Assembly (NCBI GenBank): GCA_963727775.1
Contig: CAVSHB010000001.1
Location: 672,001-736,000 of the forward strand
Direction of reading: 5' to 3'
DNA: 64,000 nucleotides
Source of the DNA: an uncultured Nitrospiraceae bacterium
GTDB taxonomy: Bacteria > Nitrospirota > Thermodesulfovibrionia > Thermodesulfovibrionales > SM23-35
The notes beneath the pieces were generated by a model. The model searched no databases. It worked only from the letters and a program-made list of their open reading frames with translations, and was not told where the DNA came from. Position numbers and translations under genes: made by a program. Positions 7 through 60,991 of this stretch are shown here, in pieces (within the stretch, counting starts at the first letter, position 1; each line of letters starts with the position of its first letter).

Positions 7-602
7 ATACCCCGCTGTCTCTGCGGGGGGGAAACCGTGAACCCCCTTTTGAAAAGGGGGTTTGGGGGATTATAATGCTGTTACAATGGAACTGGGAAAG
101 AGGCCTCATGCGGTCTATAAGATTCGATACCATTTGGTGACTGCTGTAAAGTACCGTAAGGTTTTGTTGAATGAGGAAGTTGAGAAATGTATCAGAGAGA
201 CAATGAGGGGAATTACTGAACGGTACAATATTGTAATCGATGAAATTGGATTTGATGAGGATCATATACATATCTTCTGCGGTGCTCAACCGCAATATAG
301 CCCGAGTCAGGTGCTGAACGTAATTAAGTCGATAACGGCGAAACGAGTATTCGAAGAATTTCCGAAGATGAAGAAAGTAGAATTGTGGGGTGGAGAATTC
401 TGGAGTGACGGCAAGGACATAGGAACGGTCGGGGATGCAACAAATGAAGAAGTGATTAAGCGATACATAAGGAATCAGACTTTGGATAAGTCTGAAATAG
501 AGCGGCGCACAGGTCAGCTAAAACTGTTCAAAATTTAAAGATGCCATCGCTGGTGAGAGTTTTCCGAGATACCCCGCCGTCTCTGCGGCGGGGCGGTTCA
601 TT
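7..602 (+). mobile_element. IS200/IS605-family element (tnpA only); left cleavage site may lie outside the window
   Basis: Related subterminal hairpins ATACCCCGCTGTCTCTGCGGGGGGG (7-31) and ATACCCCGCCGTCTCTGCGGCGGGG followed by CGGTTCATT (569-602) flank an HUH transposase. Confidence 0.85.
86..538 (+). CDS. tnpA: IS200/IS605 family Y1 transposase TnpA
   Basis: YHLV..KYRK, HUH motif DHIHI, FWSDG, catalytic YIRNQ; ATG at 86 preferred over TTG at 62. Confidence 0.95.
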   Translation: MELGKRPHAVYKIRYHLVTAVKYRKVLLNEEVEKCIRETMRGITERYNIVIDEIGFDEDHIHIFCGAQPQYSPSQVLNVIKSITAKRVFEEFPKMKKVELWGGEFWSDGKDIGTVGDATNEEVIKRYIRNQTLDKSEIERRTGQLKLFKI

Positions 603-741
603 CATAAAACTTCTGGGTGCCGACAAATACAGTATTTGCGCTCATTCTCGGCCCGGTAAAAATCGGGCCTCCGAGGTAAATTCTTTCTTCAAAAGAATTT
701 AAAACCGCTTAAATACTGCATCTGTCGGTAGTTTTGTGAAT
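600..741 (+). repeat. Structured intergenic repeat, copy A
   Basis: Terminal IR ATTCATAAAAC/GTTTTGTGAAT; long outer stem; core CGCTCATTCTCG-hairpin-CTCCGAGG-hairpin-CCGCT; near-identical to 60672-60786. Confidence 0.9.
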
Positions 742-749
742 AGTGCAGG

Positions 750-1868
750 TTAACGAATCGGGGTATATCCTCCGGGGACGCCGCTTTTGGAAAGTACGAT
801 CTGCCAAACCTGCTGACACCGGGACCTGAATGAACCGGCGCAGCTTAACAGATAATACTTCCACATCCGGTAAAATCGTTGATCATAAGATTTTGTTAAT
901 CTGGCCCAATTGGAATTAAAGTTCTTGAACCATGACATTGTAGTGGCGTCATAATCAAAGCCGATGTTGTGGATATCTTCTGCAACGAACAACCCTTCGA
1001 TGGCCGTGACGATCTGTTTCATCGATGGGACAAATGAATTCGGGAAGATATACTTATCGAGCCAGGGGTCGAAATTGATATTTGTGACGTCGTTTACTAT
1101 GGTATGCAGCAGGAACAGGCCGTCATTCTTCAGACAATTATGGACCTTCTCCATATAGGTTCTATAATTCTTATGTCCCACATGCTCAAACATACCGATG
1201 GACACTATATGATCGAATTTTTCGTCCAGGTCCCTGTAATCCTGAAGCCTGATTTCCACAGGCAGCCCCCTGCAAAGCTCCCTGCCGAGGGACGCCTGTT
1301 CTTTCGAGACCGTTATCCCGGTGACTTCAACCTTGCAGTTTTCAGCGGCATATTTTGCAAGGCTCCCCCAACCGCAGCCGATGTCCAGTATCCTGTCGCC
1401 CGGCTTGAGGCCCAATTTCCTGCAGATCAGTGCCAGCTTGGCTTCTTGCGCGTCATCCAGGTTTCCGGAATCCTTCCAGTAAGCGCAACTGTAGACCATC
1501 CTTTTATCGAGCATGGCCTTAAAGAGTTCGTTCCCTTTATCGTAATGTTTTTCTCCTATCTGGAAGGCCTTCGATTTTCTGCCCGGGTTGAGGATTACTT
1601 CACCGAGGACCCGAAAAAGGATGCGCCAGTTCTTTTTGATCTTGTCTTCAGGGCGGGTCGGCAGGATCTTCGCGAAAAAATCATCGAGACGCTCGCATTC
1701 CCACCATCCGTCCATATATGCTTCTCCAAGCCCTAAACTGCCTTCTCTAAGTACCCGCTTATAAAACCGCTCGTCCGTTATCCGTATATCCCAGGGCTTG
1801 TCTCCGTTGATGTTAATGCCTGCCGGGGACAGTATCCCCTGCATGATATCTTTTAATCTGGCTGCCAT
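750..1868 (-). CDS. cfa: Cyclopropane-fatty-acyl-phospholipid synthase
   Basis: GSLGLGEAYMDGWW, HYDKGN, YSCAYW, LDIGCGWG, SIGMFEHVG, YIFP, RMWKYYL. Confidence 0.95.
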   Translation of the reverse strand: MAARLKDIMQGILSPAGININGDKPWDIRITDERFYKRVLREGSLGLGEAYMDGWWECERLDDFFAKILPTRPEDKIKKNWRILFRVLGEVILNPGRKSKAFQIGEKHYDKGNELFKAMLDKRMVYSCAYWKDSGNLDDAQEAKLALICRKLGLKPGDRILDIGCGWGSLAKYAAENCKVEVTGITVSKEQASLGRELCRGLPVEIRLQDYRDLDEKFDHIVSIGMFEHVGHKNYRTYMEKVHNCLKNDGLFLLHTIVNDVTNINFDPWLDKYIFPNSFVPSMKQIVTAIEGLFVAEDIHNIGFDYDATTMSWFKNFNSNWARLTKSYDQRFYRMWKYYLLSCAGSFRSRCQQVWQIVLSKSGVPGGYTPIR

Positions 1869-2055
1869 TTTGCCTCAAACATCTTAAATACTGCTCTTTT
1901 TCGATTTTACCACTTTTGGATAAATTTTCAAGGCTGAATGGTTTTACGATTGATTTGTTTTGGTGTTTAAGCGCGGGACAGGACTGATCTATCGTTTAGC
2001 GGTGGGGCTACAATAACTCCATTTGCGAAGGAAAAACAAAAAAGATAATGAACGA

Positions 2056-3609
2056 TTACCGGTCTTTTCTGTTGTACCCGAATCTTTCTTCAAAGACAGG
2101 GGCAATGAGATTGTCGACCGGCGCGTAATCATCGCGGAGAACTACGGAGTATGTTTTCTTCATGAAGTCATTTACCATATTGTCCGGCACTACGGCGGAG
2201 GTAGCCGCACTTTCAAACTTCTCCTTAATGAAGTTCTTAAAATCCATGATGTTCATATCATCCCCGCCGGTGAAAACGATAAAAGTGCTCGTGCCCGTCT
2301 TTTCAAACCAGGGGCTTATTGAGATCAGATGAACATTATTTTCGCCGAAGACCTCTCTCAATGTCCTGATATAGGACGGCAGGAAAGTCCCCTTTTGAAA
2401 ATTGTCGATTATATTTGTCAGCAGTATACCGTGCGGGTTGAGGATATTCCTGATCTGTACTGCAAATTCTTTTGTGGTCAGATGATATGGTATCGAGAGG
2501 TCGTTGTAGGCGTCTATAAAGACGACGTCGTATTTCTCCTTGCAGTTCATCACAAACCAGCGGCCATCGGTGTTGAAAGTGCGTATCTTCGAATTCCGGG
2601 GCAGTCCGAGATATGCATAAGCGATCTTCGTTATCTCAGGGTCTATCTCAACAACATCGAGTTGCGCTTTGGGATAAAAGACCTCCATATACCTCGGGAA
2701 GGTGTATCCTCCTCCCCCGATTGTCAGGCTCCTGAAAGACGCGTCTTTTTCGAACCTCCACTTCAGCAACTCGGAATAGATTTTCTCGTATTGATATTCA
2801 ATATGCAGGGGGTTTTCCAAAGCCACGTAAGAGTGCACCAGGTTGTCCAGTATCATGGCCTCCAGCCGGGTCTTGCCGTCTTTGCTCATGGCCTTCTTCA
2901 GTTTTATCGTGTAATAGTCACTCTCCTTGTAATAATAAGTATCGGAGGTCAACTGTGGTTTAAAGGCCAGACTGTAAGTGCTTGCGATCAAAAGGGAAGG
3001 CAACAGCAGGAGCCCGAAGACAGGCTTTTTTGATCTGAAAAGCGAACCCCATATTATGGCTGTCAAGATCAAAATGCTCCCCATGACCAGAATGATATGT
3101 CTTGTCCCCATCCAGGAGATAAGGAAAAACCCCGCGGCAAAAGTCCCGAGGATTGAACCGAGCGTTGAAACCGCGTATATCTTGCCGACAACATTACCCA
3201 CCCTATCGAGATTCTTAATCGCAAGCTTTACGACAACAGGAGAGATCATCCCGAGAATACAGCTTGGAATAAAAAAAGTAATCGCCGTCATAATCAGGAT
3301 GCGGAGCATGAGGGATGTAGGGAAATGGTATCCAGCAACAATATTCGTCATCGGCGAGATCAATAGAGTGGCAGCACCTGAAACGAGCAAAAGCCATCCA
3401 AGGGTCTTTTTACCGGGGAACCTGTCCGCCAGCTTACCGCCTGAAAATGCGCCGATGCTGATCCCCGCAAGGACAACTCCGATTATACTCGTCCAAGTAT
3501 ACAAAGATACGCCGACAAACGGCGCGAGGATGCGTCCGGCAACGATCTCGATCACCAGGATGCAGAAACTCGCTATAAATGTAATGATATAAGCTGTAAT
3601 AATATTCAT
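2056..3609 (-). CDS. Fused membrane domain / spermidine synthase-like SAM-dependent transferase
   Basis: About 7 N-terminal TM helices (RILAPFVGVSLYTW), then IGGGGYT, VVEIDPE, DVVFIDAY, HLTTKEF, DDYAPV. Confidence 0.9.
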   Translation of the reverse strand: MNIITAYIITFIASFCILVIEIVAGRILAPFVGVSLYTWTSIIGVVLAGISIGAFSGGKLADRFPGKKTLGWLLLVSGAATLLISPMTNIVAGYHFPTSLMLRILIMTAITFFIPSCILGMISPVVVKLAIKNLDRVGNVVGKIYAVSTLGSILGTFAAGFFLISWMGTRHIILVMGSILILTAIIWGSLFRSKKPVFGLLLLPSLLIASTYSLAFKPQLTSDTYYYKESDYYTIKLKKAMSKDGKTRLEAMILDNLVHSYVALENPLHIEYQYEKIYSELLKWRFEKDASFRSLTIGGGGYTFPRYMEVFYPKAQLDVVEIDPEITKIAYAYLGLPRNSKIRTFNTDGRWFVMNCKEKYDVVFIDAYNDLSIPYHLTTKEFAVQIRNILNPHGILLTNIIDNFQKGTFLPSYIRTLREVFGENNVHLISISPWFEKTGTSTFIVFTGGDDMNIMDFKNFIKEKFESAATSAVVPDNMVNDFMKKTYSVVLRDDYAPVDNLIAPVFEERFGYNRKDR

Positions 3610-3689
3610 GCCCGGTCACCTCAGAAAGAGATCTTTATCGGTACATTGTATCACGATGATTTCGGAAAAATTCAAGTCCCGGTTCCCGA

Positions 3690-4123
3690 TTTTTGTTTCA
3701 GTTCTTTTACTCCTTAAACCATATCTGTCCCATGTTATAGGTTCGGCTGCGGGATGGGGAAGGACTGTTGTGCTTTTGCTGACCGGGGTATTTTCAGGAT
3801 TTCTTTCCGGTATGATGGGCGTGGGAGGGGGCACTATTATGGTCCCCGCTATGGTGCTTCTGGCGGGCTTCGGCCAGCATACCGCACAGGGGAGCTCTTT
3901 GCTCGCCATGGTCCCTGCCGGCGCAGTCGGCGCCTTGACCCATAGGCGGCTCGGAAATGTTGATACAAGCCTCCTCACCGGACTTATTCCGGGCATCCTG
4001 ATAGGGACATATCTGGGAGGGAGTCTTGCTCACGAACTTCCGGAGGGAACATTGCGCATAATATTCGCTGCTGTTCTGGTCTGGACCGGGGTCCGTTATC
4101 TTAGGACCAAATCTCCAAAATAA
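3690..4123 (+). pseudogene. Sulfite exporter TauE/SafE family, C-terminal half only
   Basis: GMMGVGGGTIMVP and HTAQGSSL repeat unit present once; N-terminal half missing, no room upstream. Confidence 0.7.
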
Positions 4124-4296
4124 AGTACTAACTGGCAGACAATTGCAACTCCTAACACTAACAATTTCGTCTTTTTAAATTACAAATCATAATGCAAGAG
4201 TGCAACTGGAAATTGATGATAATGATAATGTACGATATTATATTGCAACTTTGTTAGCAATAATTATAGTCACCGATTAAACGAAAAGGAGAAAAA

Positions 4297-4704
4297 ATGA
4301 AATTTGCAAACTTAAAATTAGAAGAGATTATGACAAGACGGGCTTTTTCCGCGAGGAAAGATATGCCGGTAAAAGACATAGCTTTTGAAATATTTTATGG
4401 GTTTTTCAGTGGAATGCCGGTAACTGACGATGATGGCAGAGTTATAGGTGTTGTGACTGAGATTGACTTGTTAAAACAGATTCGTCAGGGTAAGGATCTT
4501 GAAAAACTTAAAGCAGATGAAATAATGACGAAGGAGCCGATAACCATTGATATAAATACTCCGTTAGATGAAGTCTTAAATATCATGATCGAGAAAAACA
4601 TAATAAGAATACCGGTAACAGAGAAAGGCCATCTGGTTGGTGTCATTGCGAGGCGTGATATTTTGAGATATTACCTGCAACCGGAATTTTTTGTGCACTC
4701 ATAG
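4297..4704 (+). CDS. CBS domain protein (tandem CBS pair)
   Basis: EIMT...GMPVTD..GRVIGVVTEIDL and EIMT...RIPVTEKGHLVGVIARRDIL; AGGAG RBS. Confidence 0.92.
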   Translation: MKFANLKLEEIMTRRAFSARKDMPVKDIAFEIFYGFFSGMPVTDDDGRVIGVVTEIDLLKQIRQGKDLEKLKADEIMTKEPITIDINTPLDEVLNIMIEKNIIRIPVTEKGHLVGVIARRDILRYYLQPEFFVHS

Positions 4705-5290
4705 TCTGTAAAGTGATTTTATCTTTGGAAGCACTTTAGGAAATAACAGCTAATATGTCTGAAAACAGTCAGGGGTGACTTATTGATCCCCTTGCCATTG
4801 CAAATTTAACCCGCCTATCTTCGGTATTTCTGCCAGCTCTAAGCTGAAGAAAGGTAACTCAGAAAGGCTATGTTTAGTCCAGGGTGAGATATTTAGCCAT
4901 AAATGCTCTGCGACATCCTTCCTGAAACAGAGATTTTCACCACAACTCTTCCGGTAGCAGAGTACCTGATAACCCTCACCGCGGAGATATGTTCAGGAAT
5001 GAAGGGTTCTGATAATAAAATTATTGTCGGAGGGTAGTTTGTCATTATGGATAGCATAAGTAAAGCCCAGACTCCGCACAACCCTCTGGAAAGGCACTCG
5101 AACTGCTCAAAATGTATAATAGAGAAGATACGGTGAATCTCTTTGATATCGCTGAAATCATTTGTGAGCGGTCAAGAGCGCAGCCCGGCATCGAGGAGTT
5201 CATATCAATACCGTCACACGCCATGAGAGGACTATATCCGATCAGATAGGCACAGCCCGTTACCTTCAGAAGCTGTGCGGGCAGTCGCTG

Positions 5291-5752
5291 ATGCAAGACA
5301 GAGAGGTTTGCGCGCTCTTGGGTGGGCTCGATCTGCACATTGAGGCAACGCAGAATGCTATGGTCAAGGCCGGAATAGTGAAGGAGTGCGCCGACTGCGC
5401 GGTGGGCGGTGAAGGGACGTGTTGCGGAGTTCGCACTGGATATAAGTGCAACAGCGTTCTTCTCTTGATCAATCTGTTGCTGGGAAGAACCCTTCCTCCT
5501 GCACCAGCCGATACACACCTCTGTCACTTTCTGACAAAGCAGGGATGTGCCCTGAGGGCGCGGCACGTGATCTGTGTGAATTTCATCTGTCAAAGACTGA
5601 GGGATGTTCTTCCGCACAACTCATTGTACAGTGTGCAGGATATCGCAGGCGGCGAGATCGACACTCTGTTTGTCCTTGAGGAGTGCATAAAAAAGAAAAT
5701 AGGCGTCGCCATGTTGCTTAGGTCTCAGAAGCAATGGGATGAGAAAATGTAG
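5291..5752 (+). CDS. Cysteine-cluster protein (YkgJ/FliB-like Fe-S/Zn binding)
   Basis: CADC...CC...CHFL...GC..R...C pattern; start uncertain, may extend to about 5223 via a 1-nt indel. Confidence 0.65.
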   Translation: MQDREVCALLGGLDLHIEATQNAMVKAGIVKECADCAVGGEGTCCGVRTGYKCNSVLLLINLLLGRTLPPAPADTHLCHFLTKQGCALRARHVICVNFICQRLRDVLPHNSLYSVQDIAGGEIDTLFVLEECIKKKIGVAMLLRSQKQWDEKM

Positions 5753-5837
5753 TTGAAGGCCTCCCTCGATAACTTCCTGAAACACGCAAGGGCGATTCTT
5801 GCTATAATATTAGAAGTTTCATGTAGTAATTAACAAA

Positions 5838-7667
5838 ATGACAAGAGATCATAATCTTCGCGGAGAAACCAAACCTCCCGACAATTTAGAAAAGCTCGTT
5901 CAAGAACGCGCTGAAGAACTGAGTAAACTCAATGAATTATTGCAATCTGAAGTCACCCAGCATAAAAAAGTACAGGCTAAAATACTTCAACTTGCTTCTT
6001 TTCCCGAACTTAACCCCAATCCTATTATTGAGGTGGATATGGGATACATTGTCGATTATCTCAATCCAACAGCCAAAACTTTATTCCCCGGTATCGAAAA
6101 GACCGGAGTAAAACATCCCTTCTTGCAGGGATTGGATTCTGAATTTGCCATGCTTGTAACCAAAGAGAAGAAATCCCATGTCCGTGAAGTTACAGTTGAT
6201 AATGTTTGGTACGAGCAGTTTATTCACTATGTCTTGGAATTCAATCACATACGAATCTATGGTCGGGATATTAGTGCGCGCAAGCGGGCAGAAGAGAAGC
6301 TACGCAAAGCCCATGATGAATTGGAAACGCAGGTTCAGGAGCGAACCGCAGAGATAAGAAGAGCTAACCGCGCCTTAAGAATGCTCTATGAATGTAACCA
6401 GATTATTGTTCATGCGACAAATGAAATGGATCTTTTGCATGACATTTGCAGAACTGTTGTGGAAACTGGAGGCTATCGTATGTCATGGGTCGGTTATGCA
6501 GAACATGACAATGAGAAAAGAGTTCATCCTGTGGCACAGGCCGGTTATGAGGACGGATACCTTGAAACTTTGGATATCACTTGGGCCGATAGTGAACGAG
6601 GCCGTGGTCCGACAGGCACCGCTATCCGGACGGGAGACCCCTCGATCGGGAGAAACTTCCTGACCGATCCTAATTTTGAGCCATGGCGTGCCGAAGCGCT
6701 GAAACGCGGCTATGCATCATCCATCTGTCTTCCCCTGATTGCCGATGGTCAAATCTTTGGCGCACTTACTATGTATGCCGTTGAACCTGACGCCTTTGAT
6801 ATCAAGGAAGTCAAACTGCTGAAAGAATTGGCGGATGACATCGCCTATTCCATCTCGGCTCTCCGGTTACGATCCGAACATTCGCGTACAGATGAAGAAT
6901 TGAGAAAATATCGTGAACACCTTGAAGAAATGGTAGAACAGCGTACAGAGCAATTGAAAAAAATATCAGATGACTTAGCACGTTCCAATATCGACCTCCA
7001 ACAGTTTGCCCATGCAGTCTCACATGACCTGCAGGAACCTTTGCGAACTGTTGCAGGTTTCGTAAAGTTGTTGGAGAGACGATACAAGGGGAAACTCGAT
7101 GCAAAGGCTGATGAGTTCATCGAATATACTGTTGATGGGGCCGAAAGGATGCAGGTACTCATTAAAGATCTTTTAGAATATTCGCAAGTGGGGACAAAGG
7201 ACAAGACATTCAAACCTACAAATTGCTCGGTAGCCCTGGAGCAAGCTATATATAATCTTCATGTGAGTATAGAAGAAAGCGGTACAGAACTGACCTATGA
7301 TCTCCTGCCTACCATAATGGCTAATGCCTCACAATTAAGTAGATTATTCCAGAACTTAATCAGTAATGCTATAAAGTTCCGGAGTAAAAAGCCCCTAAAG
7401 ATTCATATTTCTGCTGAACATAGGGGAAATGAGTGGGTGTTTTCTGTTAGAGATAATGGTATAGGAATAGATCCAAAGTTTGCAAATAGGATATTTGATG
7501 TTTTCCAGCGTCTCCATACAAGAAAGGAATATCCAGGTACAGGTATTGGTCTTACAAATTGCAAGCGGATTGTGGAACATCATGGCGGCAAGATCTGGGT
7601 TGAATCAGAGCTTGGAAAAGGCTCTACATTTTACTTTACAATCCCTGATAGAGAAGCAGCTGTATAA
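5838..7667 (+). CDS. Sensor histidine kinase (PAS-like, GAF, HisKA, HATPase)
   Basis: [24 protein letters not shown]-box [30 protein letters not shown]. Confidence 0.95.
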
Positions 7668-22098: not shown

Positions 22099-24315
22099 AT
22101 GCGCTATTACGATGAATTGGTCAATGAACTTTCAGAGCTTTGCGGTATAGCCTCGGAGTATTGGGATATCTTCGGCAAAAGGCATGTAGCTTCTTTGGAT
22201 ACAAAAAAGGCGATACTCAGAGCAATGAGAATCAATATCGGTTCGGCTGAAGATATAGCCGGAGAGATCCATGAGCGGAAATGGAAAACCTGGAAAAGCT
22301 TCATTGATCCGGTGCATGTCATATCGGTAAGTCAGCCGTTGAGGATCCCTGTTTATATCCACGTACGGGGATCCAAACAGCCGGAACTTAAGATCTCATG
22401 GTCTGTTGTCAGCGAGAACGGGAGAAAAGATGAATACAGGCTCACCGGGGATTCCATAACCGTGTCAGAACAACAATGGATAGACGGCATAAGGTATATA
22501 AAGGTATATCTGACGGATGAGGCGCACAGGGACATAGGGTATCATGTGCTCTCTGTTGAGTGCACACACCCTGAGAGAAAGGATAAGCTCAAAAAAAAAT
22601 CAAAGATCATCGTATGCCCGGACGCCTGTTATATCCCCGCTTCATTGCAGGAACACAGGACGTGGGGGCTGTCTGTTAACCTTTATTCAATACGCTCAAG
22701 ACGGAATTGGGGGATAGGCGATTTTACCGATCTTAATAAGATTGTCAAGCTGATTGGTGAATCGAAGGGCGGTTTTGTCGGGATCAATCCATTGCACGCG
22801 GGCCCCAATACAAAACCTTTTGGCATAAGCCCCTATTCACCGATAAGCAGGCTCTATAAAAACTTCATTTATCTTGATCTGGAAAAAATACCCGAAGTGA
22901 AAGAGTCAAGCGTGATTCGTAAAATCATATCTTTCCGGAAGTTTAAAAAAGAATTGGATGAACTGAAGTCTTTGGACCTAATTGATTACGAAAAGACAGC
23001 ATCTGTAAAAGAAAAAATAGTGAGACAGGCTTTCGGGCATTTTTATAAGAAACACTATATACAGGACACGCGTAGGGCGAGGGAATTTAAGAAATATGTA
23101 TCGGCAGAAGGCGCAGACCTTGAATCTTTTGCTGTCTTCATGGCCTTAAGGGAACATATGATAGAAAAAGCCGGCTTATATTCATGGCAGGAATGGCCGG
23201 AAGAATATCAGGATATATCAGGGAAGGCGGTAGAGGCGTTCAAAAAAGCAAATGCCGGAGAGATACTTTACTACCAATATGTTCAGTGGCTTATCGACAC
23301 GCAACTGAATGAGATTTCTATGACTGCTAAAAATAAAGGGATGGACCTTGGACTTTACTTTGACCTTGCGATCGGGTCTATCGGAGGCGGAAGCGACGCC
23401 TGGAATTACAGGGACGTAATCGCAGACGGACCGGATGTCGGCGCGCCTCCTGATGATTTCAGTCCCGAGGGCCAGAAATGGGGTTTCCCGCCGCTCATTC
23501 CCGATGGCCTGAAAGAAAAAGGATATGAATTATTTATACTAACGATAAGAAAGAATATGAAATACGCGGGCGCTTTGAGAATAGACCATGCTCTCGGCAT
23601 GTTCAGGATTTTCTGGATCCCGGAGGGCATGTCTCCAAAAGACGGTGCTTATGTCCTTTATCCGTCGGAGGACCTGCTGAGAATCATCGCCCTGGAGAGT
23701 ATGCGTAACCGGACGCTGGTGATCGCAGAGGACCTTGGAACGATAGGAGAAAATGTCAGGGAGACGCTTAAGAGGTTCAGAATGCTTTCTTACAGGCTCT
23801 TTTATTTTGAGAGGAACTATCCCGACCCTTCGTTCCTTTTGCCGGAGAGATACCCTGACACGGCCTTATGCGCTGTGACGACCCACGACCTTCCGACCAT
23901 ATACGGCTATTGGAGCGGCGCCGATCTTGAGGCAAGGAGAAAGCTGGGCAAATTTCCTGACGATGTTTCGTGGATAAAACAGGTCAATGAAAGAGAAAAG
24001 GACAAGAGGCTTATCCTTACTGTCCTCAAGTCCCGGAATATTGTACCGGATGGTTTTCCTTCCGAGCCGGAGATGGTCCCGGAAATGACCCCGGAACTTT
24101 GCCTTGCAATATACCGCTATCTTGCTTTGACTCCGTGCAAACTGCTGCTTGTGAGCCTCGATGATATTATCGGTGTCATGAATCAGCAGAACATGCCGGG
24201 CACGGTTGATGTCTATCCAAACTGGATGCAGAAGACGCCGCTGACCCTGGAGGAGATCATGAAAGACAAAAGGGTTGCCGGTCTTGCAAAGGAGTTAAAG
24301 AAATATTTCAGCTAA
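22099..24315 (+). CDS. malQ: 4-alpha-glucanotransferase (GH77)
   Basis: WGIGDFTDL, SPYSP, DLAIG, GAPPD, LRIDHALG, AEDLG, TTHDLPT, NMPGT. Confidence 0.96.
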   Translation: MRYYDELVNELSELCGIASEYWDIFGKRHVASLDTKKAILRAMRINIGSAEDIAGEIHERKWKTWKSFIDPVHVISVSQPLRIPVYIHVRGSKQPELKISWSVVSENGRKDEYRLTGDSITVSEQQWIDGIRYIKVYLTDEAHRDIGYHVLSVECTHPERKDKLKKKSKIIVCPDACYIPASLQEHRTWGLSVNLYSIRSRRNWGIGDFTDLNKIVKLIGESKGGFVGINPLHAGPNTKPFGISPYSPISRLYKNFIYLDLEKIPEVKESSVIRKIISFRKFKKELDELKSLDLIDYEKTASVKEKIVRQAFGHFYKKHYIQDTRRAREFKKYVSAEGADLESFAVFMALREHMIEKAGLYSWQEWPEEYQDISGKAVEAFKKANAGEILYYQYVQWLIDTQLNEISMTAKNKGMDLGLYFDLAIGSIGGGSDAWNYRDVIADGPDVGAPPDDFSPEGQKWGFPPLIPDGLKEKGYELFILTIRKNMKYAGALRIDHALGMFRIFWIPEGMSPKDGAYVLYPSEDLLRIIALESMRNRTLVIAEDLGTIGENVRETLKRFRMLSYRLFYFERNYPDPSFLLPERYPDTALCAVTTHDLPTIYGYWSGADLEARRKLGKFPDDVSWIKQVNEREKDKRLILTVLKSRNIVPDGFPSEPEMVPEMTPELCLAIYRYLALTPCKLLLVSLDDIIGVMNQQNMPGTVDVYPNWMQKTPLTLEEIMKDKRVAGLAKELKKYFS

Positions 24316-40094: not shown

Positions 40095-40169
40095 TGGGGC
40101 GTCGACAAACGGCAAGTCAGGAGCCTTTGGAGCTCCCATCTGGAGGTTCGAATCCTCCCGCCCCAGCCA
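40095..40169 (+). tRNA. tRNA-Gln (TTG)
   Basis: Anticodon arm GGAGC-CTTTGGA-GCTCC, T-loop GGTTCGAATCC, 3' GCCA. Confidence 0.95.
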
Positions 40170-44728: not shown

Positions 44729-44750
44729 AGTGTCCCTTTAACCTTTAGAT

Positions 44751-44880
44751 GGGGAGGTAATGGTATTCGAGCGGATTCTTTTGTCGATAGTCGTATTAAA
44801 TAATCCGGTTAGTAAAGAGGCAAAAGCCTCGGAGGCCGCCTGAGGCGGACGAGAATGAGCGACAATACTATTACCTCCCT
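44751..44880 (-). repeat. Structured intergenic repeat, copy D
   Basis: Outer stem GGGAGGTAATGGTATT / AATACTATTACCTCCC; reverse strand has CGCTCATTCTCG-hairpin-CCTCCGAGG...CCGCT. Confidence 0.8.
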
Positions 44881-44912
44881 GAGTTCTATATAATGATTCT
44901 ATCAAGACAATT

Positions 44913-45886: not shown

Positions 45887-47422
<1,536 letters not shown>

Positions 47423-47476
47423 ATTACGTTAGAGGGTAGCGCTACGCACTTTTTTAGCTTTTAGCAGAGAAAGCAG

Positions 47477-47553
47477 GGGCCTATAGCTCAGCTGGCTAGA
47501 GCGCACCCCTGATAAGGGTGAGGTCATTGGTTCGACTCCAATTAGGCCCACCA
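47477..47553 (+). tRNA. tRNA-Ile (GAT)
   Basis: CACCC-CTGATAA-GGGTG anticodon arm, CCA end, ITS position. Confidence 0.98.
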
Positions 47554-47576
47554 TCCAATGCAGATTTTTTTTGCGA

Positions 47577-47652
47577 GGGGGTGTAGCTCAGTTGGGAGAG
47601 CGCCTGCTTTGCAAGCAGGAGGTCATCGGTTCGATCCCGTTCACCTCCACCA
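47577..47652 (+). tRNA. tRNA-Ala (TGC)
   Basis: CCTGC-TTTGCAA-GCAGG anticodon arm, CCA end. Confidence 0.98.
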
Positions 47653-47761
47653 AGGAAGTTCCGAGTTCAATGTTCAATAATCGAAGTTGATAATGGACGT
47701 TAACACGCGGACGTTGAAGTGGAAGTTTTTAGTTCTTTGACAACAGAAGGGAATAAGTAAG

Positions 47762-50789
<3,028 letters not shown>

Positions 50790-50873
50790 CTTATTTAATT
50801 TCCCTCCTGTTGTCAAAGAGATGTTGAAATGATTGCTCTTTAAATGGTAAAATGTAAAATCGGAAATTAAAGT

Positions 50874-50992
50874 TTCCGGTGGCAATGCCGAGGGGGAAAC
50901 ACCCGTTCCCATACCGAACACGGAAGTTAAGCCCCTCAGGGCCGATGATACTATGATTGCTAAGGTTATGGGAAAGTAGGTCGCTGCCGGAT
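50874..50992 (+). rRNA. rrf: 5S rRNA
   Basis: CACCCGTTCCCATACCGAACACGGAAGTTAAG, AGTAGGTCGCTGCCGG. Confidence 0.97.
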
Positions 50993-51032: not shown

Positions 51033-51053
51033 ATTTTCCATTTTCGATCTTCA

Positions 51054-53759: not shown

Positions 53760-53904
53760 TAGATATCTCCCTCTTAATAAGTATAAACAAATTATACGAA
53801 TCGGAGCAGCCCTGTGATGGTTAGTGTGATGGTTAGATACTTGAGTTGCCGGGTTTTAGATTCTCTTGTTATACTTAAATATATCCGACTACAAACAAAT
53901 TATT

Positions 53905-54711
53905 ATGGACGAGAAAGAAAAAAAAGAAATTAAAAAGCTTGTGATAAAGACGTATGCGGCAGTCGCATCGTCAAAACAATCTTCGTGCATCCCTGTTTCG
54001 AGTTGCTGCGCTCCGGAAAATGATGCGGTAAGCCTTCTTGATGCAGGGAAGCGTCTCGGATACACTGACGAAGAGCTAAAAATAGGACTCGGCGAGGCAA
54101 ACCTCGGCCTTGGGTGCGGAAATCCGCATGCGATTGCGGATATAAAAGAAGGCGAGACAGTCCTCGACCTGGGAAGCGGCGCAGGGTTTGACGCCTTTCT
54201 ATCTTCTATGAAAACCGGACCGAATGGTCACGTAATCGGAATAGACATGACCCGGGAAATGGTTGCAAAAGCAAAGACCAACGCAGAAAAACTCGGGGTG
54301 AAGAATGTAGAATTCAGATTTGGCGAGATAGAACATCTTCCCGTAGAAGATTCTTTTATCGACGTGGTCATATCCAACTGTGTTATCAATCTTTCGCCTG
54401 ATAAGCAGGCTGTTTTCAATGAAGCGTTCAGAGTGTTAAAACCCAGGGGCAGGATTGCAATCTCGGACATCCTGAAAAAAGCCGAGTTCTCAGAGGCCAT
54501 CAGGCAGAATGAAAATGCATACAGCGGCTGAATTACCGGCTCTGTTCCCGTGGAGGAACTGCAAACCATCCTCAATAAAGCCGGGTTTATTAATATCGTT
54601 ATTGAAAATAAAGATAATAGCGATGAGATAATCAAAAGCTGGAACTTCGGCGCCGGTGTAGAAAAGATGGTCTTTTCAGCATATATCAAAGCAACAAAAC
54701 CAGTCGGGTAG
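53905..54711 (+). CDS. arsM: Arsenite methyltransferase ArsM, probable selenoprotein (UGA at 54529-54531 read as Sec)
   Basis: SSCC, LGLGCGNP, LDLGSGAGFD, DMT.EM, ISNCVINL, AYSG-UGA-ITGS followed by 59 open codons ending SAYIKATKPVG*. Confidence 0.88.
54544..54559 (+). promoter_or_regulatory. Putative bacterial SECIS hairpin
   Basis: GTTCC-CGTGGA-GGAAC; G near the start of the apical loop, about 18 nt after the UGA. Confidence 0.65.
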
Positions 54712-54823
54712 ATGTACCACCAATTGGCACGTCGAACTGTGTCCAAAAATAAATATACAATGAATACACTCATAGGTATGAGTGGCAAGAGGTTTGTTAC
54801 TAAACCGGTAGGCATGAAAATCT

Positions 54824-55861
54824 ATGAATAATACATCATCAGGAAAAGGCAAATTAATAGAAAGGCATATTAAACGTTTAAAGAAAATTCATCGGCGTCC
54901 TATATGCCTTGCAAATGGCGAGTGTGGCGGGGTAATTGGTAGATCACACACTATTTCCGAAGCAATGAGTCTCAAATCTATATCTGAGAATGATCATGTA
55001 TTGGTAAGGCAAATAAATCTTTTTGGAAAAACAGAGGATGAGCTTCTCGCTTTTAAAAATCTGAGCGTCCATGAGGCATTAGCGTTTCCCGGATTTTGTA
55101 ATCACCATGATACCACGCTGTTTAAATCTCTTGATCAATCACCATTTATAGCCACGCCTGAACAACTCTTTATGCAGGCGTATAGATGCGCGTGCAGAGA
55201 GTATTATTTCAAGGCATGTCAAATAGAAGCGTTTCCGGATGCTAATCAAATAGCAGAACTTCAGGGTCTCCGAAAAGAAGATAAATACAAGCTGTCGCCC
55301 GAGGCGGAGATTATCAAAATTGCTATGAATAGAGGTTTTGCCGATGTTGCTTATCATAAGGATAAGTTTGAAAGCCTCCTTAGCAATAATGACTTCAGGA
55401 GACTACAATCCTACATTATTTACGGGAAGTCGTCACCAGTTTTAGCTTGTGCAGGCTCTTTCGCTCCAGATTTCATTTCAAATGGCGAGTGTCTTCAAGA
55501 TTTTTCTGATTTCAAGATTAATCTGCAAAGTCTATTCGTATCGGTTATCCCCGACAAGACTGGCATATTTGTTCTATTGTCATTCTTTGACGATGACGCT
55601 TTTGCCCCTACGCGATTTATTAACGACCTCATTGTAGGAGGCAATCTTACACATAGAGTAATATGGATGTGCATGACACGAATTGAAAATTTGGCTGTTA
55701 GACCCTCATGGTGGAATGGGCTCTCAGCGTCAATACAGCAAAAGGTCACGGCAGCAGTCAACTACAATGCAGATCCATTCGATAGCAGACTCCCAACTTT
55801 TGACAGAATGCCTAACTTAGAAATTGCAGATTGGCAGGTCAGCCATCAATTCTGGACTTAA
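54824..55861 (+). CDS. Hypothetical protein (Cys/His-containing N-terminus)
   Basis: 345-aa ORF; C....C......SHTIS and FPGFCNHHD..LF motifs. Confidence 0.75.
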   Translation: MNNTSSGKGKLIERHIKRLKKIHRRPICLANGECGGVIGRSHTISEAMSLKSISENDHVLVRQINLFGKTEDELLAFKNLSVHEALAFPGFCNHHDTTLFKSLDQSPFIATPEQLFMQAYRCACREYYFKACQIEAFPDANQIAELQGLRKEDKYKLSPEAEIIKIAMNRGFADVAYHKDKFESLLSNNDFRRLQSYIIYGKSSPVLACAGSFAPDFISNGECLQDFSDFKINLQSLFVSVIPDKTGIFVLLSFFDDDAFAPTRFINDLIVGGNLTHRVIWMCMTRIENLAVRPSWWNGLSASIQQKVTAAVNYNADPFDSRLPTFDRMPNLEIADWQVSHQFWT

Positions 55862-56034
55862 ATGCCTAACACTTATAAGAAGAGCAATCAAAGGGGTCAA
55901 TTTCATTGTGACAGATTCTTCTTGATTCACATTATGAGGCTCCTTAGATAGCCTCAAATCTGATACGATATCATCATGAATCTAACTCTTTGTGATATCA
56001 TAATTTTATTGAATATGCACTGTGAGGTGAAAAA

Positions 56035-56232
56035 ATGAAAACTAAATTAAAAATGATTTACTGGAAAGGTGACAAGTTTTGGTTGGGGAAACTCCTTGCA
56101 CATCCTGAAATAATGACACAAGGTGAGACACTGGAAGAACTTGAAGAAAACATGAAAGATGCATACATGCTTATGACGATGGAGGATGTTCCGGAAAAAC
56201 ATAAAGTTAAAGAGCTCACCCTCTCGTTTTGA
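56035..56232 (+). CDS. hicB: HicB family antitoxin (short form)
   Basis: WLG.L..HP...TQGETLEELEENMKDAY. Confidence 0.88.
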   Translation: MKTKLKMIYWKGDKFWLGKLLAHPEIMTQGETLEELEENMKDAYMLMTMEDVPEKHKVKELTLSF

Positions 56233-56402
56233 AAAGAAAAGAATTGATAAAAAGAATCACATCTGCCGGCTGTCTTCTCATTAGGCACGGGCATTGTCAC
56301 GATCTTTACATAAACCACAAAACCGGTAAGAAGCAACCTGTCCCTCGCCATAATGAAATAGATGAAAACCTCGCAAGACATATAATAAAGGAATTGACAT
56401 AA
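56229..56402 (+). CDS. hicA: HicA family toxin (57 aa, missed by the ORF track)
   Basis: TTG start overlapping the hicB stop; MKRKELIKRITSAGCLLIRHGHCHDLYINHKTGKKQPVPRHNEIDENLARHIIKELT. Confidence 0.88.
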   Translation: MKRKELIKRITSAGCLLIRHGHCHDLYINHKTGKKQPVPRHNEIDENLARHIIKELT

Positions 56403-56472
56403 TCGGGTAAGGGACGGTAATTAACCGTACCTTACCACACCATCCTGCATGCGGGTCCATACGGGGCGGTTC
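56402..56472 (-). mobile_element. Group II (class C) intron 3' remnant: domains V and VI
   Basis: Reverse strand GAACCGCCCCGTATGGACCCGCATGCAGGATGGTGTGG-TAAGGTACGGTTAATTACCGTCCCTTACCCGAT; CGC triad, AY 3' end. Confidence 0.75.
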
Positions 56473-56504
56473 GCAGAAAGCCGCGAGGCCGTTTAAATGG
56501 AGTC

Positions 56505-58340
56505 TTATTTCGAAAAATAAATATCTTCTTCGACAGCGCCATGGAGCCCACGCGTATCCGTCCAGACCACATAAGGTTTGCCGTTATTAACTGTGACCCA
56601 GATATAGTCACCGAGAAACCCCGCCTGGATGGGATTATTAGCAGGCGTCAAATTAGGCATTGAAGAGGTTGTGATTCGTTTATACGTTATCTTGGGTGAA
56701 ATAGAAATGGGCTTTTTAACCGTTGCCAGTGTAATGTCGTTACATCCTGTAAATTCACAGTTACCGTAAGAACGGTCGTAGTAGACCAAAAAAAGGCTGG
56801 AGCCATCCGGCGCTATGGCGCTCCAGGACTGCCACTGTGCAGTTGGTCCGAACTTGGAGGCAGGTGTGACGTTGATGGGGTTATTCCAGTTGATGCCGCC
56901 ATCTGTCGAAAAAGTAAAGAACACGTCATTGTCACAGGGAGGTGTTGCACTCGAAGCCTGGCCATCTGCGGCATTATTCCAGTCACAGCTTCCGCCGACA
57001 CCATTGCGGAAATCCGCCCAAACAAAATAGAGGTCGCCCTTTTTATCGACGGACAAAGACCCGGTAGTATCGTCCCCTACGCGATAACCGTTTGGTGGAA
57101 GGCATTGGTCTCCGGAAGAGCAGCCGGTTACTGAACTGGGACCGAACGGTTGCTTGCTGATGTCATCGGTGATCTTGATAGGCGCTGTCCAGTTTGCTGC
57201 GAGACTGCAGTCTTTTGTTGACGGGCAGGAGACAATCAAAAACTGATTAACGCCATCGAGGGGGGTGTTCGTATTATTAAATGATACATATATCGTTCCA
57301 TCCGGGTCGACTATCGGGTCAGATCCCTGGTCCTGGTCGCACTGATTTGCATTTGCCGAACCGCTGAAAGCAGTGCAGGCCGGGCTTGCGCCGCTGATCT
57401 CTACGCCGGGCGACCATGTAGCGCCGCCATCTGTGGATTGGCTGAAATATATAGGGCTGTTAAATCCTGTGCCGTTTCCTGTGGCTGAGTTAAACCGTGT
57501 CCATGTTGCATATACGTTATTTTTTTTCGGACTGGCCGGGTTGCTGTCGGCTATGGCAAAATCTTTGTCGTTGAGGACATTAGGATCGTTGTCATTTGCT
57601 ATAACCCCGAGGGTTTCGGTGTCATAAGTCTGGAAGGGGATAGTTGAATCCGGACTATGATAAAAAGCTCCGCCTATGGGGAAGTTTGATTTGGCGACGA
57701 CAAGCGCGCTTGCGGGTGAGACAATGTCAAAGAGCAGCCCTACGATATACGCATTGCCGCCGGCGTCGAATGTAACAGTAGGGTCGCTGCACGCGTCCGC
57801 TGTATGATCATCTGCCATCAGGAATTGGTAGAAGGGCGGGATTAGGTCTCCCCACGTATTGCCGCCGTCGAAAGACCAGGCATAGCCGCATCGGTTGTAC
57901 CCGAGACGGGAATCATTTGCTCCAGCGATAAGATTCCGGGAATTTAAAGGATTGACGGCAATTACCGTCTCAGCTTGCCGACGCAGTGAGCAGTCCTGAT
58001 TTACCCGAATGTTCTTGATCCCACCTTTATTAAAGACATTTTGGCATCCTTGAGTGTGGTCAAGGGATTTAATGACGGGGAGCGATTGTTGTAAAGAAAT
58101 GCCCCCGATATCGGCTTTACTGACGGATTTTCCCGCAGTCTCAAGAAAAGTACGAAGCGGGGCCGATGAAATTAAATGTTCATGTGAAGCTCGGTGCACA
58201 GATCCCAGGTGGATACTAATAGCGCGGCGCAAAACCTGATTTTCACTTTTTATTGTATCCGCTTGACCTGCACAAAGCGCAGGAGCTGTAAAGATAAGGA
58301 CAAATAGGGAAGCCACAAACAAATAAATCTTTGCTTTCAT
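56505..58340 (-). CDS. Secreted BNR/Asp-box (sialidase-like beta-propeller) protein
   Basis: Signal peptide MKAKIYL; Asp-boxes SFDGGNTW, STDGGATW, STDGGINW; FLGDY. Confidence 0.88.
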   Translation of the reverse strand: MKAKIYLFVASLFVLIFTAPALCAGQADTIKSENQVLRRAISIHLGSVHRASHEHLISSAPLRTFLETAGKSVSKADIGGISLQQSLPVIKSLDHTQGCQNVFNKGGIKNIRVNQDCSLRRQAETVIAVNPLNSRNLIAGANDSRLGYNRCGYAWSFDGGNTWGDLIPPFYQFLMADDHTADACSDPTVTFDAGGNAYIVGLLFDIVSPASALVVAKSNFPIGGAFYHSPDSTIPFQTYDTETLGVIANDNDPNVLNDKDFAIADSNPASPKKNNVYATWTRFNSATGNGTGFNSPIYFSQSTDGGATWSPGVEISGASPACTAFSGSANANQCDQDQGSDPIVDPDGTIYVSFNNTNTPLDGVNQFLIVSCPSTKDCSLAANWTAPIKITDDISKQPFGPSSVTGCSSGDQCLPPNGYRVGDDTTGSLSVDKKGDLYFVWADFRNGVGGSCDWNNAADGQASSATPPCDNDVFFTFSTDGGINWNNPINVTPASKFGPTAQWQSWSAIAPDGSSLFLVYYDRSYGNCEFTGCNDITLATVKKPISISPKITYKRITTSSMPNLTPANNPIQAGFLGDYIWVTVNNGKPYVVWTDTRGLHGAVEEDIYFSK

Positions 58341-58478
58341 TTTATCTTCCTCCTTTATAGTCAAAATAATATCATCAAAATCAAAGTCTGCATAGCGCAA
58401 CAAAAAAGCACGCATTTTTTTTAATACGGGTTATATGTACAAACCCGGAAATATCTACTATACTTTGAATGTATTTTA

Positions 58479-60638
58479 ATGAAACTATTAGGAATGTTAG
58501 GAATGGCTTGCGATCTTGTCCATAAGACGAACAGGAAAATCTCAAACGGCAGATATTATCCTTTGGGCGCCACAGTATATGATGACGGCGTAAATTTTGC
58601 GCTTTATTCCCGGAACGCAACTGAAGTATTCCTCCTCCTTTTCGATAAAGCGGACAGCGGTCCGACAGATGTCATAAAACTTGAGAACCGTACAAAATAT
58701 ATATGGTACACATTTGTTCACGGTATAAAGTCAGGACAGTTGTATGGATATAAGGTCAGAGGAGATTTCAGGCCTGAATACGGCCTGCGCTTTAATGAAA
58801 ACAAACTTCTTATGGACCCCTATGCAAAGGCCCTGACGGGCAAGTTTATTAACAGGGATAACCTTCTCCTTGCATATAATCCCGATCATTCTGCAAAAGA
58901 CCTGACATACGACGAACGCGACAACACACTTATTGTGCCGAAGTCCATAGTCATAGATGACAAGTTTGACTGGAAGGGGGATGTGCATCCGGACATTCCT
59001 TTGGAAAAAGTATTTATTTATGAAGTCCATCTAAAAGGTTTTACTGCACACAAGTCTTCCGGCGTTACCTGTCCCGGAACTTATCTCGGTTTCATAAAAA
59101 AAATCCCTTATCTCAAAGACCTGGGAATAAACGCTGTCGAGATTTTGCCTGTTCATGAATTCTATGTCGATGATTTTCTGCTGAATAAGGGACTGACGAA
59201 TTACTGGGGCTATAACACTATAGGTTTCTTTGCGCCTGAATCATCATACAGCACGAACAGCAGTCCGGGCTGTCAGGTGAATGAGTTCAAAACGCTCGTT
59301 CGGGAACTCCATAAAGCCGGCATCGAGGTAATACTGGATGTGGTATACAACCATACCTGCGAAGGCAATGAACTCGGTCCGACAATCTGCTTTAAGGGCA
59401 TAGATAACCCTACCTATTATGCCCTTACGGGAACGCCTTCGAATCCGTACCGGTATTATATGAACTATACGGGTTGCGGCAACACGGTCAATCTTGCAAA
59501 TGCTCATGTCATAAGATTTGTAATGGACTCGCTGAGATACTGGGTGGAGCAGATGCACGTCGACGGATTCAGATTTGACCTTGCTTCAGTCCTGGGGCGC
59601 GAGGGGGGGATATTCCAAAATTCAGCAAGCTTTTTCGACGCTGTCTCGCAGGACCCTGTATTAAACAGGATAAAGCTGATTGCCGAGCCATGGGACCTCG
59701 GTACCTATCAGGTTGGGAATTTCCCCATAGACTGGTCTGAATGGAATGGAAGATTCAGAGATACCATAAGGAAATTCGGGAAAGGTGACGGCGGGCTGAT
59801 ATGCGATCTCGGATGGAGATTAACAGGCTCCGCTGATTTATATAAGGACGACGGCAGGTCTGCATATAACAGCATAAATTTTATAACCTGCCATGACGGT
59901 TTTACACTGAAAGATCTCGTCTCCTATAATTACAAGCATAATGAGGCCAATCTTGAAAACAATAACGACGGGACCAATGACAATAATTCATGGAACTGCG
60001 GGGCTGAGGGAGAGACGGACGATCCCGACATCATCAGATTGAGGAAACAGCTTGTAAAGAATTATATCTGCTGGCTACTGTTTTCCTCCGGTACCCCGAT
60101 GATACTCGGAGGCGACGAATTCTTGAGAACGCAGGAGGGCAATAACAACGCTTACTGTCAGGACAATGAGATAAGCTGGTTTAACTGGGGCGATATAAAG
60201 AAGAACTCCGATATCCGGGAATTTTTTAAAAAAGCAATTGCGTTTACCAATAAATATACCGTCCTTCAGCAAAGGAAGTTTTTTTCAGGAAAGGACATGG
60301 ACGGTGACACAATACCCGATATCTCATGGTTTGGAAAAGACCTTGATAAGCCTTCATGGGATGATTACGAACTGCGTACTCTGGCCTATTTGCTCGATCC
60401 CGATGAAGGCGCTTCGGGGTCTGACGATTATTTTCTCTTCATTATACTTAATGCTGATTTCAATCCCCGGACAGTGAAGATACCCCGGCTTCCGGGAGAA
60501 AGAAAATGGCACAGGGTAATCGACACAAGCCTTAACAGCGGCGATGATTTTCTTGATAAAGGCAGGGAGATGCTGCTTGCCCCCCAGGATTATTATCCGG
60601 CAAAGCCACGGAGCACGGTCGTCCTTCTTGGCGTTTGA
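58479..60638 (+). CDS. glgX: Glycogen debranching enzyme (isoamylase)
   Basis: YPLGAT, NYWGY, DVVYNH, VDGFRFDLA, IAEPWD, TCHDGFTL, GNNNAYCQDN. Confidence 0.97.
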   Translation: MKLLGMLGMACDLVHKTNRKISNGRYYPLGATVYDDGVNFALYSRNATEVFLLLFDKADSGPTDVIKLENRTKYIWYTFVHGIKSGQLYGYKVRGDFRPEYGLRFNENKLLMDPYAKALTGKFINRDNLLLAYNPDHSAKDLTYDERDNTLIVPKSIVIDDKFDWKGDVHPDIPLEKVFIYEVHLKGFTAHKSSGVTCPGTYLGFIKKIPYLKDLGINAVEILPVHEFYVDDFLLNKGLTNYWGYNTIGFFAPESSYSTNSSPGCQVNEFKTLVRELHKAGIEVILDVVYNHTCEGNELGPTICFKGIDNPTYYALTGTPSNPYRYYMNYTGCGNTVNLANAHVIRFVMDSLRYWVEQMHVDGFRFDLASVLGREGGIFQNSASFFDAVSQDPVLNRIKLIAEPWDLGTYQVGNFPIDWSEWNGRFRDTIRKFGKGDGGLICDLGWRLTGSADLYKDDGRSAYNSINFITCHDGFTLKDLVSYNYKHNEANLENNNDGTNDNNSWNCGAEGETDDPDIIRLRKQLVKNYICWLLFSSGTPMILGGDEFLRTQEGNNNAYCQDNEISWFNWGDIKKNSDIREFFKKAIAFTNKYTVLQQRKFFSGKDMDGDTIPDISWFGKDLDKPSWDDYELRTLAYLLDPDEGASGSDDYFLFIILNADFNPRTVKIPRLPGERKWHRVIDTSLNSGDDFLDKGREMLLAPQDYYPAKPRSTVVLLGV

Positions 60639-60671
60639 ACATTTACCCCACTTAATTCCTATAATTTGCGG

Positions 60672-60786
60672 TTGCCGACAGATACAGTATTTGCGCTCAT
60701 TCTCGGCCCAGTACGAATCGGGCCTCCGAGGTAAATTCTTTCTTCGAAAGAATTTAAAACCGCGCAAATACTGTATCTGTCGGCAA
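60672..60786 (+). repeat. Structured intergenic repeat, copy B
   Basis: Perfect outer stem TTGCCGACAGATACAGTATTTGCG / CGCAAATACTGTATCTGTCGGCAA with the same core as copy A. Confidence 0.9.
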
Positions 60787-60819
60787 TTTTATGGATAGTG
60801 ATAGCGCAGGCTAACTCAT

Positions 60820-60991
60820 ATTATTCATAAATATTTTGTTCGACCAGAGCAGATGCAGTATCAGAGCGGCTTTACAGAGTGTTCGACGCCTTAAAGCGAC
60901 GGACACTCTGTACCTCGGAGGTCCGCAAAAGCGGACCGAGAATGAGCGATGATACTGCATCTGCTCTGACTGCCAATACGTTCTGAATAAT
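60820..60991 (-). repeat. Structured intergenic repeat, copy C (inverted relative to B)
   Basis: Outer stem CAGAGCAGATGCAGTATCA / TGATACTGCATCTGCTCTG; same core on the reverse strand; ends ATTATTCA/TGAATAAT. Confidence 0.85.

Follow-up and report, generated by a model that had tools for sequence, protein, structure and literature searches.

The 64,000-nucleotide window analyzed here comes from the 3.43-Mb genome of an uncultured Nitrospiraceae bacterium (assembly GCA_963727775.1, contig CAVSHB010000001.1, positions 672,001–736,000; this genome is labeled G000, and other genomes and loci are cited by labels such as G338 and L608). It carries four intergenic copies (A–D) of a structured repeat, and the question raised by the locus is what this repeat is and what keeps its center alike while its stems change. 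An earlier note on the window, made from the sequence alone, had described a multi-way junction with variable stems and had offered a mobile element or a noncoding RNA as explanations. We conclude that the family is a real and apparently undescribed structured module that occurs in several wrappers of MITE type (MITEs being miniature inverted-repeat transposable elements) across phyla. The reading we prefer, with moderate confidence and on the basis of predicted folds, is that the module is a selected, strand-specific single-stranded DNA (ssDNA) fold, carried by MITEs and read by a putative protein.

The 12-mer CGCTCATTCTCG is present exactly at 639 (+), 60694 (+), 60937 (−) and 44850 (−) of the window, for which the chance expectation at one mismatch is 0.37; a fifth match with one mismatch, at 23492, is intragenic and lacks the second motif. 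All four copies were located where the earlier note had placed them, with the hairpins, CTCCGAGG, AAN-CCGC(T/G) and the long closing stems present, and copies A and B are nearly identical as described (9 of 113 core bases differ). Folding z-scores of the window copies ranged from −4 to −10.5 on both strands. The copy number of four proved too low, as pattern search and covariance model put 72–73 copies in this genome: the 12-mer has 61 exact occurrences, a two-motif pattern matched 72 times compared to 2, 5 and 2 times in three shuffled versions, and a covariance model built from 45 diverse copies gave 73 strong matches among 150 scored candidates. Rfam 15, ribozymes included, returned nothing above the gathering threshold in the window, in copies B and C at a relaxed E-value or in 20 further loci. 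No account of the family was found in the literature on bacterial repeats and MITEs, a survey that left out ISfinder and the papers' supplements, and the family is not mentioned in passages from three MITE papers (PMC3184786, PMC11602168 and PMC10969869).

The inner module, 105–150 bases long, is predicted to form a three-way junction closed by a 20–21-bp stem. The order on the folding strand is stem, GAGCGG-N-TT, hairpin, CCTCG, GAG bulge, hairpin, CGAG, AAT, GAGCG, stem, with an A-G pair next to the junction in 258 of 295 copies. In a 45-sequence alignment, 91% of cells were paired, a figure that is partly circular because the sequences had been picked for an exact junction and a paired stem; both-side changes numbered 564, compared to 173 after shuffling and 113–166 with the register slid. 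The closing stem was examined in copies with 10 or more of the 14 inner pairs formed. It was at least ~80% paired up to pair 19–20 and reached background by pair 22–24 in all four groups of copies, and its length is 20–22 bp in each.

The strand written out in the earlier note is not the one predicted to fold better. Under DNA parameters, the reverse strand was favored in 271 of 295 copies, and under RNA parameters in 259 of 295. Mismatches in the closing stem point the same way, as A-C (G-T on the reverse strand) outnumbered G-T on the written strand by 73:14 in this genome and 101:31 elsewhere; this test is independent of the alignment's selection for an exact junction, and the bias was present in all four gene contexts of this genome. 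The hairpin loops were asymmetric too. Among 71 distinct triloop hairpins, GNA triloops numbered 27 on the folding strand versus 3 on the other (7/8 in G338), and an rRNA control gave 0/14. According to PMC13037366, d(GNA) mini-hairpins are exceptionally stable as DNA and their RNA counterparts far less so; the GNA excess matches this signature. Taken together, the G-T wobbles and GNA triloops of these modeled folds point to ssDNA rather than RNA.

Selection on the junction was assessed in 30 main-subfamily copies retrieved by the stem arm alone. Mismatch to the majority was 2.2% in the junction and 1.8–3.3% in the inner hairpin stems, compared to 6.8% in the closing stem, 11% in the loops, 8–18% in the linkers and 12–17% in the terminal repeats. 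Shared variants per site were 0.08 in the junction versus 0.25–0.82 in the loops, linkers and terminal repeats. The pattern is consistent with selection that acts mainly when an element is copied, together with a degree of constraint or repair at resident sites. Both-side stem changes and junction conservation together support the proposal that a folded multi-way junction is under selection. The claim of an invariant junction stood in the sense of strong conservation; absolute invariance was given up, as linked variants exist. In the three-site junction subfamily, one inserted base and two substitutions occur together (13 copies and 18 further metagenome stretches; L352, L357, L383, L421 and L515–L532), and one of the changes converts a C-G to a T-G pair on the reverse strand. 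By reading of its sequence, this variant would form a tandem G-A resembling that of a k-junction, and it amounts to a natural compensatory mutant.

The outer layer of many copies was traced to an insertion sequence (IS). A core-free search for the sequence flanking the copies returned five elements of this genome that share these ends, four of them intact (1650 bp) and one partial, and the intact elements encode an IS1380 transposase (NF033539, E 8e-123). IS1380-type ends were matched on the left of 48, the right of 44 and both sides of 35 of the 72 copies (background 4%). Among the 35, 21 lacked the target YTAR on at least one side and were left out of the duplication count. The remaining 14 are flanked by YTAR left and right, and in 12 of them the two 4-mers are identical, where 4.7 would be expected (0 of 10,000 permutations). 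Two of the four intact IS1380 copies have identical flanks as well, and the other two have YTAR on both sides with differing sequence. The IS1380 family shares with the wrapped form the matching 16-bp ends, the YTAR target, the 4-bp duplication and an intact transposase in the same genome; it differs in that its ends alone are common and the folded module is absent from the IS. PMC3281130 lists an IS1380-family element with 16/13-bp ends and a 5-bp duplication, which makes the size scale of the present element compatible with the family. The wrapped form, 153–195 bp long, has the hallmarks of a MITE, namely terminal inverted repeats that match an autonomous IS, target duplication and a short, noncoding, multi-copy and polymorphic body. 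IS1380-matching ends and target duplications, thus, support the suggestion of a nonautonomous mobile element, and its limits extend beyond those first drawn, to the transposon termini.

Copy A is a remnant of an IS1380-type MITE (601–749, +), the left terminal repeat of which was cut by an IS200 insertion; its right end is followed by TTAA at 750–753, which is also the stop codon of a downstream cyclopropane-synthase-like gene. Its folded module (618–730, predicted folding strand −) has a closing stem at 618–637/711–730 and junction motifs at 639–650, 669–676 and 705–708. Copy B (60647–60810, +) is an IS1380-type MITE with a left end matching 13/16 and a right end that, as read from the sequence, is split by four extra bases; its module lies at 60673–60785 (predicted folding strand −), with the junction at 60694–60705 and 60760–60763. 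Copy C is a complete 182-bp IS1380-type MITE (60815–60996, −) with both ends at 14/16 and is the single copy in the window with a target duplication, CTAA at 60811–60814 and 60997–61000, the latter containing the stop codon of an SprT-like gene; its module lies at 60844–60969 (predicted folding strand +). Because YTAR includes TAA or TAG, the ending of copies A and C on stop codons would be explained. Delivery of copies A–C by IS1380 is well supported and, in our judgment, very probable. Copy D (module 44749–44882, +) has no recognizable terminal repeats (best 8/16) and lies between co-directional aldolase and zinc-dehydrogenase genes, with a predicted folding strand (+) antisense to both. Around 60805–60820, copies B and C adjoin across the shared CTAA, and several other back-to-back pairs in this genome share one YTAR, which suggests that element ends serve as insertion hot spots.

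Comparison of orthologous sites was used to follow gain, loss and rearrangement. The site of copy D is empty in all 27 relatives that have both genes; for copies A–C, no empty site was found, and two contig comparisons yielded no clean joint of an empty site. Filled and empty sites both occur among closely related genomes of another family. One empty site consists of a stop codon, one base and a start codon with no stem arm, so the inner stem was not made from the target, and the idea that the arms arise by inverted copying of target DNA is rejected for the inner stem in Thermodesulfovibrionales. For G338 and G339, the available relatives were only ~65–84% identical and too distant for such a comparison. 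The core was flipped between locus-specific arms at three clear sites of six, cutting across genus lines (site S4, with nested remnants, was ambiguous and does not enter the count of flips), and 3–4 copies in this genome and copies in G346 are inverted within their wrappers. The core is sometimes lost between two CGCTC repeats to leave a bare hairpin, and bare hairpins are found in this genome as well. Orthologous interiors averaged 90% identity versus 75% for non-orthologous pairs, and stem changes comprised 50 in both arms, 57 in one arm and 19 others. Template switching is known to homogenize arms and invert spacers, although the inverted spacers reported in PMC8604942 are only 2–5 bp. It accounts in principle for arm matching and spacer inversion, but not for the conserved unpaired junction or the fixed stem length.

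The inner module extends well beyond this genome. Of 24 genomes of the same family, 21 have the exact junction pattern; phylum-wide, 23 of 251 have it, only one of these outside the order, and a GTDB pattern scan gave at least 125 stretches with titles from many phyla. Model-confirmed multi-copy families were found in eight non-Nitrospirota genomes labeled as eight phyla, with copy numbers that are mostly lower bounds; by genome title, these are Planctomycetota (at least 122), Gemmatimonadetes (at least 56), Competibacteraceae (at least 46), Omnitrophota (at least 23), Desulfobacterium (at least 14), Deltaproteobacteria (at least 11), Parcubacteria (at least 5) and Latescibacterota (at least 5). 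By the model, a Saccharibacteria genome has one copy, the one Acidobacteria genome tested has none, and a pattern match in G344 was not confirmed. A search for remote homologs in the class to which G346 belongs was negative in all 149 other genomes, and none of three pattern matches in viral contigs has the structure of the element. Judged from these sequences, the spread is patchy and looks horizontal. The wrappers differ: both IS1380-type ends are present in only 11 of 118 copies from other genomes, the terminal repeat in G346 is an unrelated one whose flanks are mostly TNA, with core-less versions of 71–73 bp present as well, other flanks are common within each of G337, G340 and G342, and G338, G339 and G341 have none. 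Core-less MITEs, thus, occur. The interior of a MITE is generally regarded as dispensable filler; here, the conserved part is the interior and the transposon ends are interchangeable. Wrapper-less copies at L083, L129 and G000 C2:742279 and at L041, L069 and L150 have the same gene neighbors in different genomes and different stems, and we take these neighbors to be pyrimidine and tryptophan synthesis genes.

Among known systems, ERIC/IRU, a 127-bp enterobacterial MITE, is the closest in architecture, being a short intergenic MITE with a long hairpin for which orientation matters (PMC2229807). In an alignment made by eye and post hoc, at loci chosen through an ERIC primer motif, copies of ERIC in Escherichia coli appear to follow the motif order of the module: CGCTCA beside a short stem comes first, then a hairpin, then a CTC bulge and last a partner resembling YCRCTC. 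ERIC differs in having no third arm, another inner stem sequence and TA ends; YTAR does contain TA, but the duplication of the present family is 4 bp. When ERIC homology was sought by covariance model (R1), none of 7 ERIC copies was recovered even after the filters were switched off, and E. coli K-12 gave no match. Homology with ERIC is plausible. Integron attC sites are similar in logic, with variable stems, conserved unpaired features, one folding strand and orientation bias (PMC5371416), and the shared hallmark, a strand-specific ssDNA fold with variable stems, is computed only; the attC box pair RYYYAAC/GTTRRRY was found at the stem ends of none of 295 copies. REPINs, too, are scattered hairpin units in which some parts are conserved, changes compensate for each other and selection acts on the unit that replicates (PMC3116915). 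They differ, together with their RAYT partners, in that the module is an asymmetric three-way junction and not a REP doublet and no cluster was found beside any Y1 gene examined; a GTAG/CGTC tag at the hairpin foot was noticed in none of the printed copies, for which no dedicated count was made. The wrapped form is a MITE that resembles attC or a REPIN as a predicted strand-specific folded unit, yet by these features it belongs to neither.

Under the preferred reading of an ssDNA fold carried by MITEs, an IS1380 transposase acting in trans would move the wrapped form, template switching during replication would keep the stem arms matched and produce the flips, and copies with an intact fold would have an advantage in being copied or restored, a bias that would hold the junction alike across phyla. 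Hosts would mostly tolerate the orientation that holds the folding strand off the mRNA-like strand. The fold is likely a binding site for a putative protein, likely dispersed as the cargo of miniature transposons. If a protein does read it, that protein would represent a novel enzyme or binding factor with specificity for ssDNA structure, spread across uncultured phyla. The module is also a sharply defined substrate, with a single strand, a stem of fixed length, an invariant junction and linked variants that occur naturally, and it makes the old question of the function and the mover of ERIC-like interiors testable.

Several observations weigh against this reading. Private mutations were reduced only about two-fold in the junction, so that constraint in place is only partial: they occupy 13 of 780 junction cells, and for loops and linkers the figure is 21 of 572 (p 0.02; several of the private mutations stem from one misaligned copy). 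Rare new mismatches in the main subfamily favored the reverse strand only 12:6, which makes the bias mostly inherited; GNRA loops are present too (11 of 103 tetraloops), some GNA counts are aGGAt loops that are possibly larger loops, and the compared sequences are related and not independent. No clear link to replication direction was found (42:28, with GC skew poorly resolved). Nor was a partner found: the largest clusters of 952 neighboring open reading frames (ORFs) include no mobile-gene cluster, and of 58 loci inspected around Y1 or IS1380 genes, a set that covers about half of the Y1 matches, only two hold an element, namely the IS200 insertion and one element 1.6 kb from a Y1 gene. This genome has no match to integron integrase (TIGR02249). 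Of 30 genomes, 6 scored over the cut-off for IS1380, and most of the element-rich relatives, many of which are fragmented assemblies, gave no match.

A serious, if less probable, alternative is that the module is itself a mobile attC-like ssDNA site for a putative recombinase or nuclease, copied into, flipped in and excised from fixed 20–21-bp stem sockets, moving between phyla with IS-derived wrappers as opportunistic additions and ERIC as a cousin. G338 bears on it. All 39 copies examined there have different stems, no wrapper and no duplication outside the stem, and nearest-neighbor interiors are 91% identical and stems 42% (shuffled 28%), a combination for which known MITE mechanisms offer no explanation. 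Immediately beyond the stem, direct repeats were not above control in G338, G339 and G000; the f7 group may have a slight excess. An integron integrase is present in 10 of 21 element carriers versus 0 of 10 genomes without pattern matches (Fisher p 0.012), an association among 31 genomes in all for which kinship and genome size are confounders. The surroundings of 12 integrase loci, 166 kb in total, hold five copies and gave neither cassette arrays nor linkage, and four intervals between close copy pairs, read for a mobilizer gene, hold ordinary genes only. In G346, one element lies ~40 bp from an integrase match (L615). One of 320 copies (L608:229–420) lies inside an attC-like site (CCCTAAC ... 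GTTAGAC, minus strand), one gene from an integron integrase, and such an embedded element is a possible vehicle for inter-phylum transfer.

That the module acts as RNA is rather unlikely. On this view, the reverse-strand transcript would be k-junction-like, its 20–21-bp stem would be an RNase III-type substrate and the element would affect mRNA stability in an orientation-dependent manner as in ERIC and Correia elements. The better fold of the reverse strand under RNA parameters, given above, would suit this, as would the strong operon orientation bias: between co-directional genes, the mRNA corresponds to the written strand in 31 of 36 cases in this genome and in 21 of 29 cases elsewhere (31:5 and 21:8). 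ERIC effects depend on orientation (PMC2229807) and Correia transcripts are cleaved by RNase III (PMC10969869), and an ERIC-like RNA effect would, by analogy, equally yield such an orientation bias. The same counts mean, however, that the folding strand tends to avoid the mRNA-like position, and 19 of 72 copies in this genome (19 of 70 in the gene-context count) lie between divergent genes. Large chromosomal integron arrays likewise hold the folding strand off the lagging-strand template (PMC5371416). The 3′-untranslated-region noncoding RNA proposed earlier is not supported by these figures, and the placement of copies just 3′ of genes holds for the four in the window, three of which lie between convergent genes, and not as a general rule. 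In addition, one orthologous site shows both orientations, and GNA triloops outnumber RNA-type loops. A scan of 60500–61100, which takes in copies B and C, found no intrinsic terminator in the form of a GC hairpin with a T run after it. The likeness to k-junctions, as in the thiamine pyrophosphate (TPP) riboswitch and DUF-3268, is one of three helices, a 3-nt loop followed by GA and a third helix on the opposite strand. The main form differs, with G at the A1n position that k-junctions need as A (GCGG in 270 of 295 copies and GCGA in 15) and loop signatures that favor DNA, and the tandem pairs G1b-A1n and A2b-G2n are absent from it, occurring only in the three-site variant subfamily. There, as read from the sequence, 13 copies would have the tandem G-A with one A between G1b and A2b, comparable to the Arabidopsis TPP k-junction (PMC10573300).

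We consider it improbable that the module is a domesticated host DNA signal, such as a priming, restart or nucleoid-protein site on transient ssDNA, that was selected by the host after delivery. Orthologous cores in two genera are 89–98% identical compared to ~71–81% for flanking DNA, and mini-hairpins are found at ssDNA priming sites (PMC13037366), but close relatives have no element, or no exact match, at the same sites, and copy number ranges from 0 to more than 120, with the other 149 genomes in the class of G346 at 0. Still less credible is that nothing is selected and that the copies are ordinary MITE remnants, with stems repaired by template switching and interiors homogenized by gene conversion. 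The flips, the 50 both-arm changes, the contrast of interiors and stems in G338 and the core-less MITEs agree with such processes. For the junction, this account is already largely refuted, as unpaired junction bases are conserved while loops of the same tract vary about five-fold more, the same junction recurs across phyla with unrelated stems, the strand asymmetry goes with the element whatever the gene context in this genome and stem length is fixed.

A self-cleaving ribozyme, or a REP-like substrate of the neighboring IS200 TnpA, is very improbable despite the invariant junction with covarying stems and a tnpA gene adjoining copy A and one other copy, as the IS200 has seven nearly identical copies with TT(A/G)AT behind all six inspected left ends and two landings inside the element's terminal repeat, its tnpA scores as IS200 and under the RAYT cut-off, and Rfam gave no match. 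This young IS200/IS605-family element (1–600, +; tnpA at 62–538), the left end of which lies 2 bases before the window, is outside the family and was inserted at its own target inside the left end of copy A. TnpA, which the earlier note had named as a possible partner, is rejected on the strength of this target preference and the two landings; because TT(A/G)AT precedes the inspected left ends and the left terminal repeat of the MITE was split in 2 of 7 cases, its proximity to copy A is a coincidence of target. Another IS200 copy, at G000 C3:334690–336923, is interrupted by an ~1.6-kb insertion, and Y1-transposase matches number 22 genome-wide.

The window has further features. A separate hairpin repeat at 62056–62104, a purine/pyrimidine-tract palindrome with a depth spike in the contig comparison, probably represents a second dispersed family, and hairpin insertions in the second arm of some copies (L041, L044, L049 and L301) resemble it. 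A 636-amino acid ORF at 56505–58415 (−) has no Pfam match. A complete rRNA operon with two spacer tRNAs occupies 45887–50992, and a third tRNA lies at 40095–40166.

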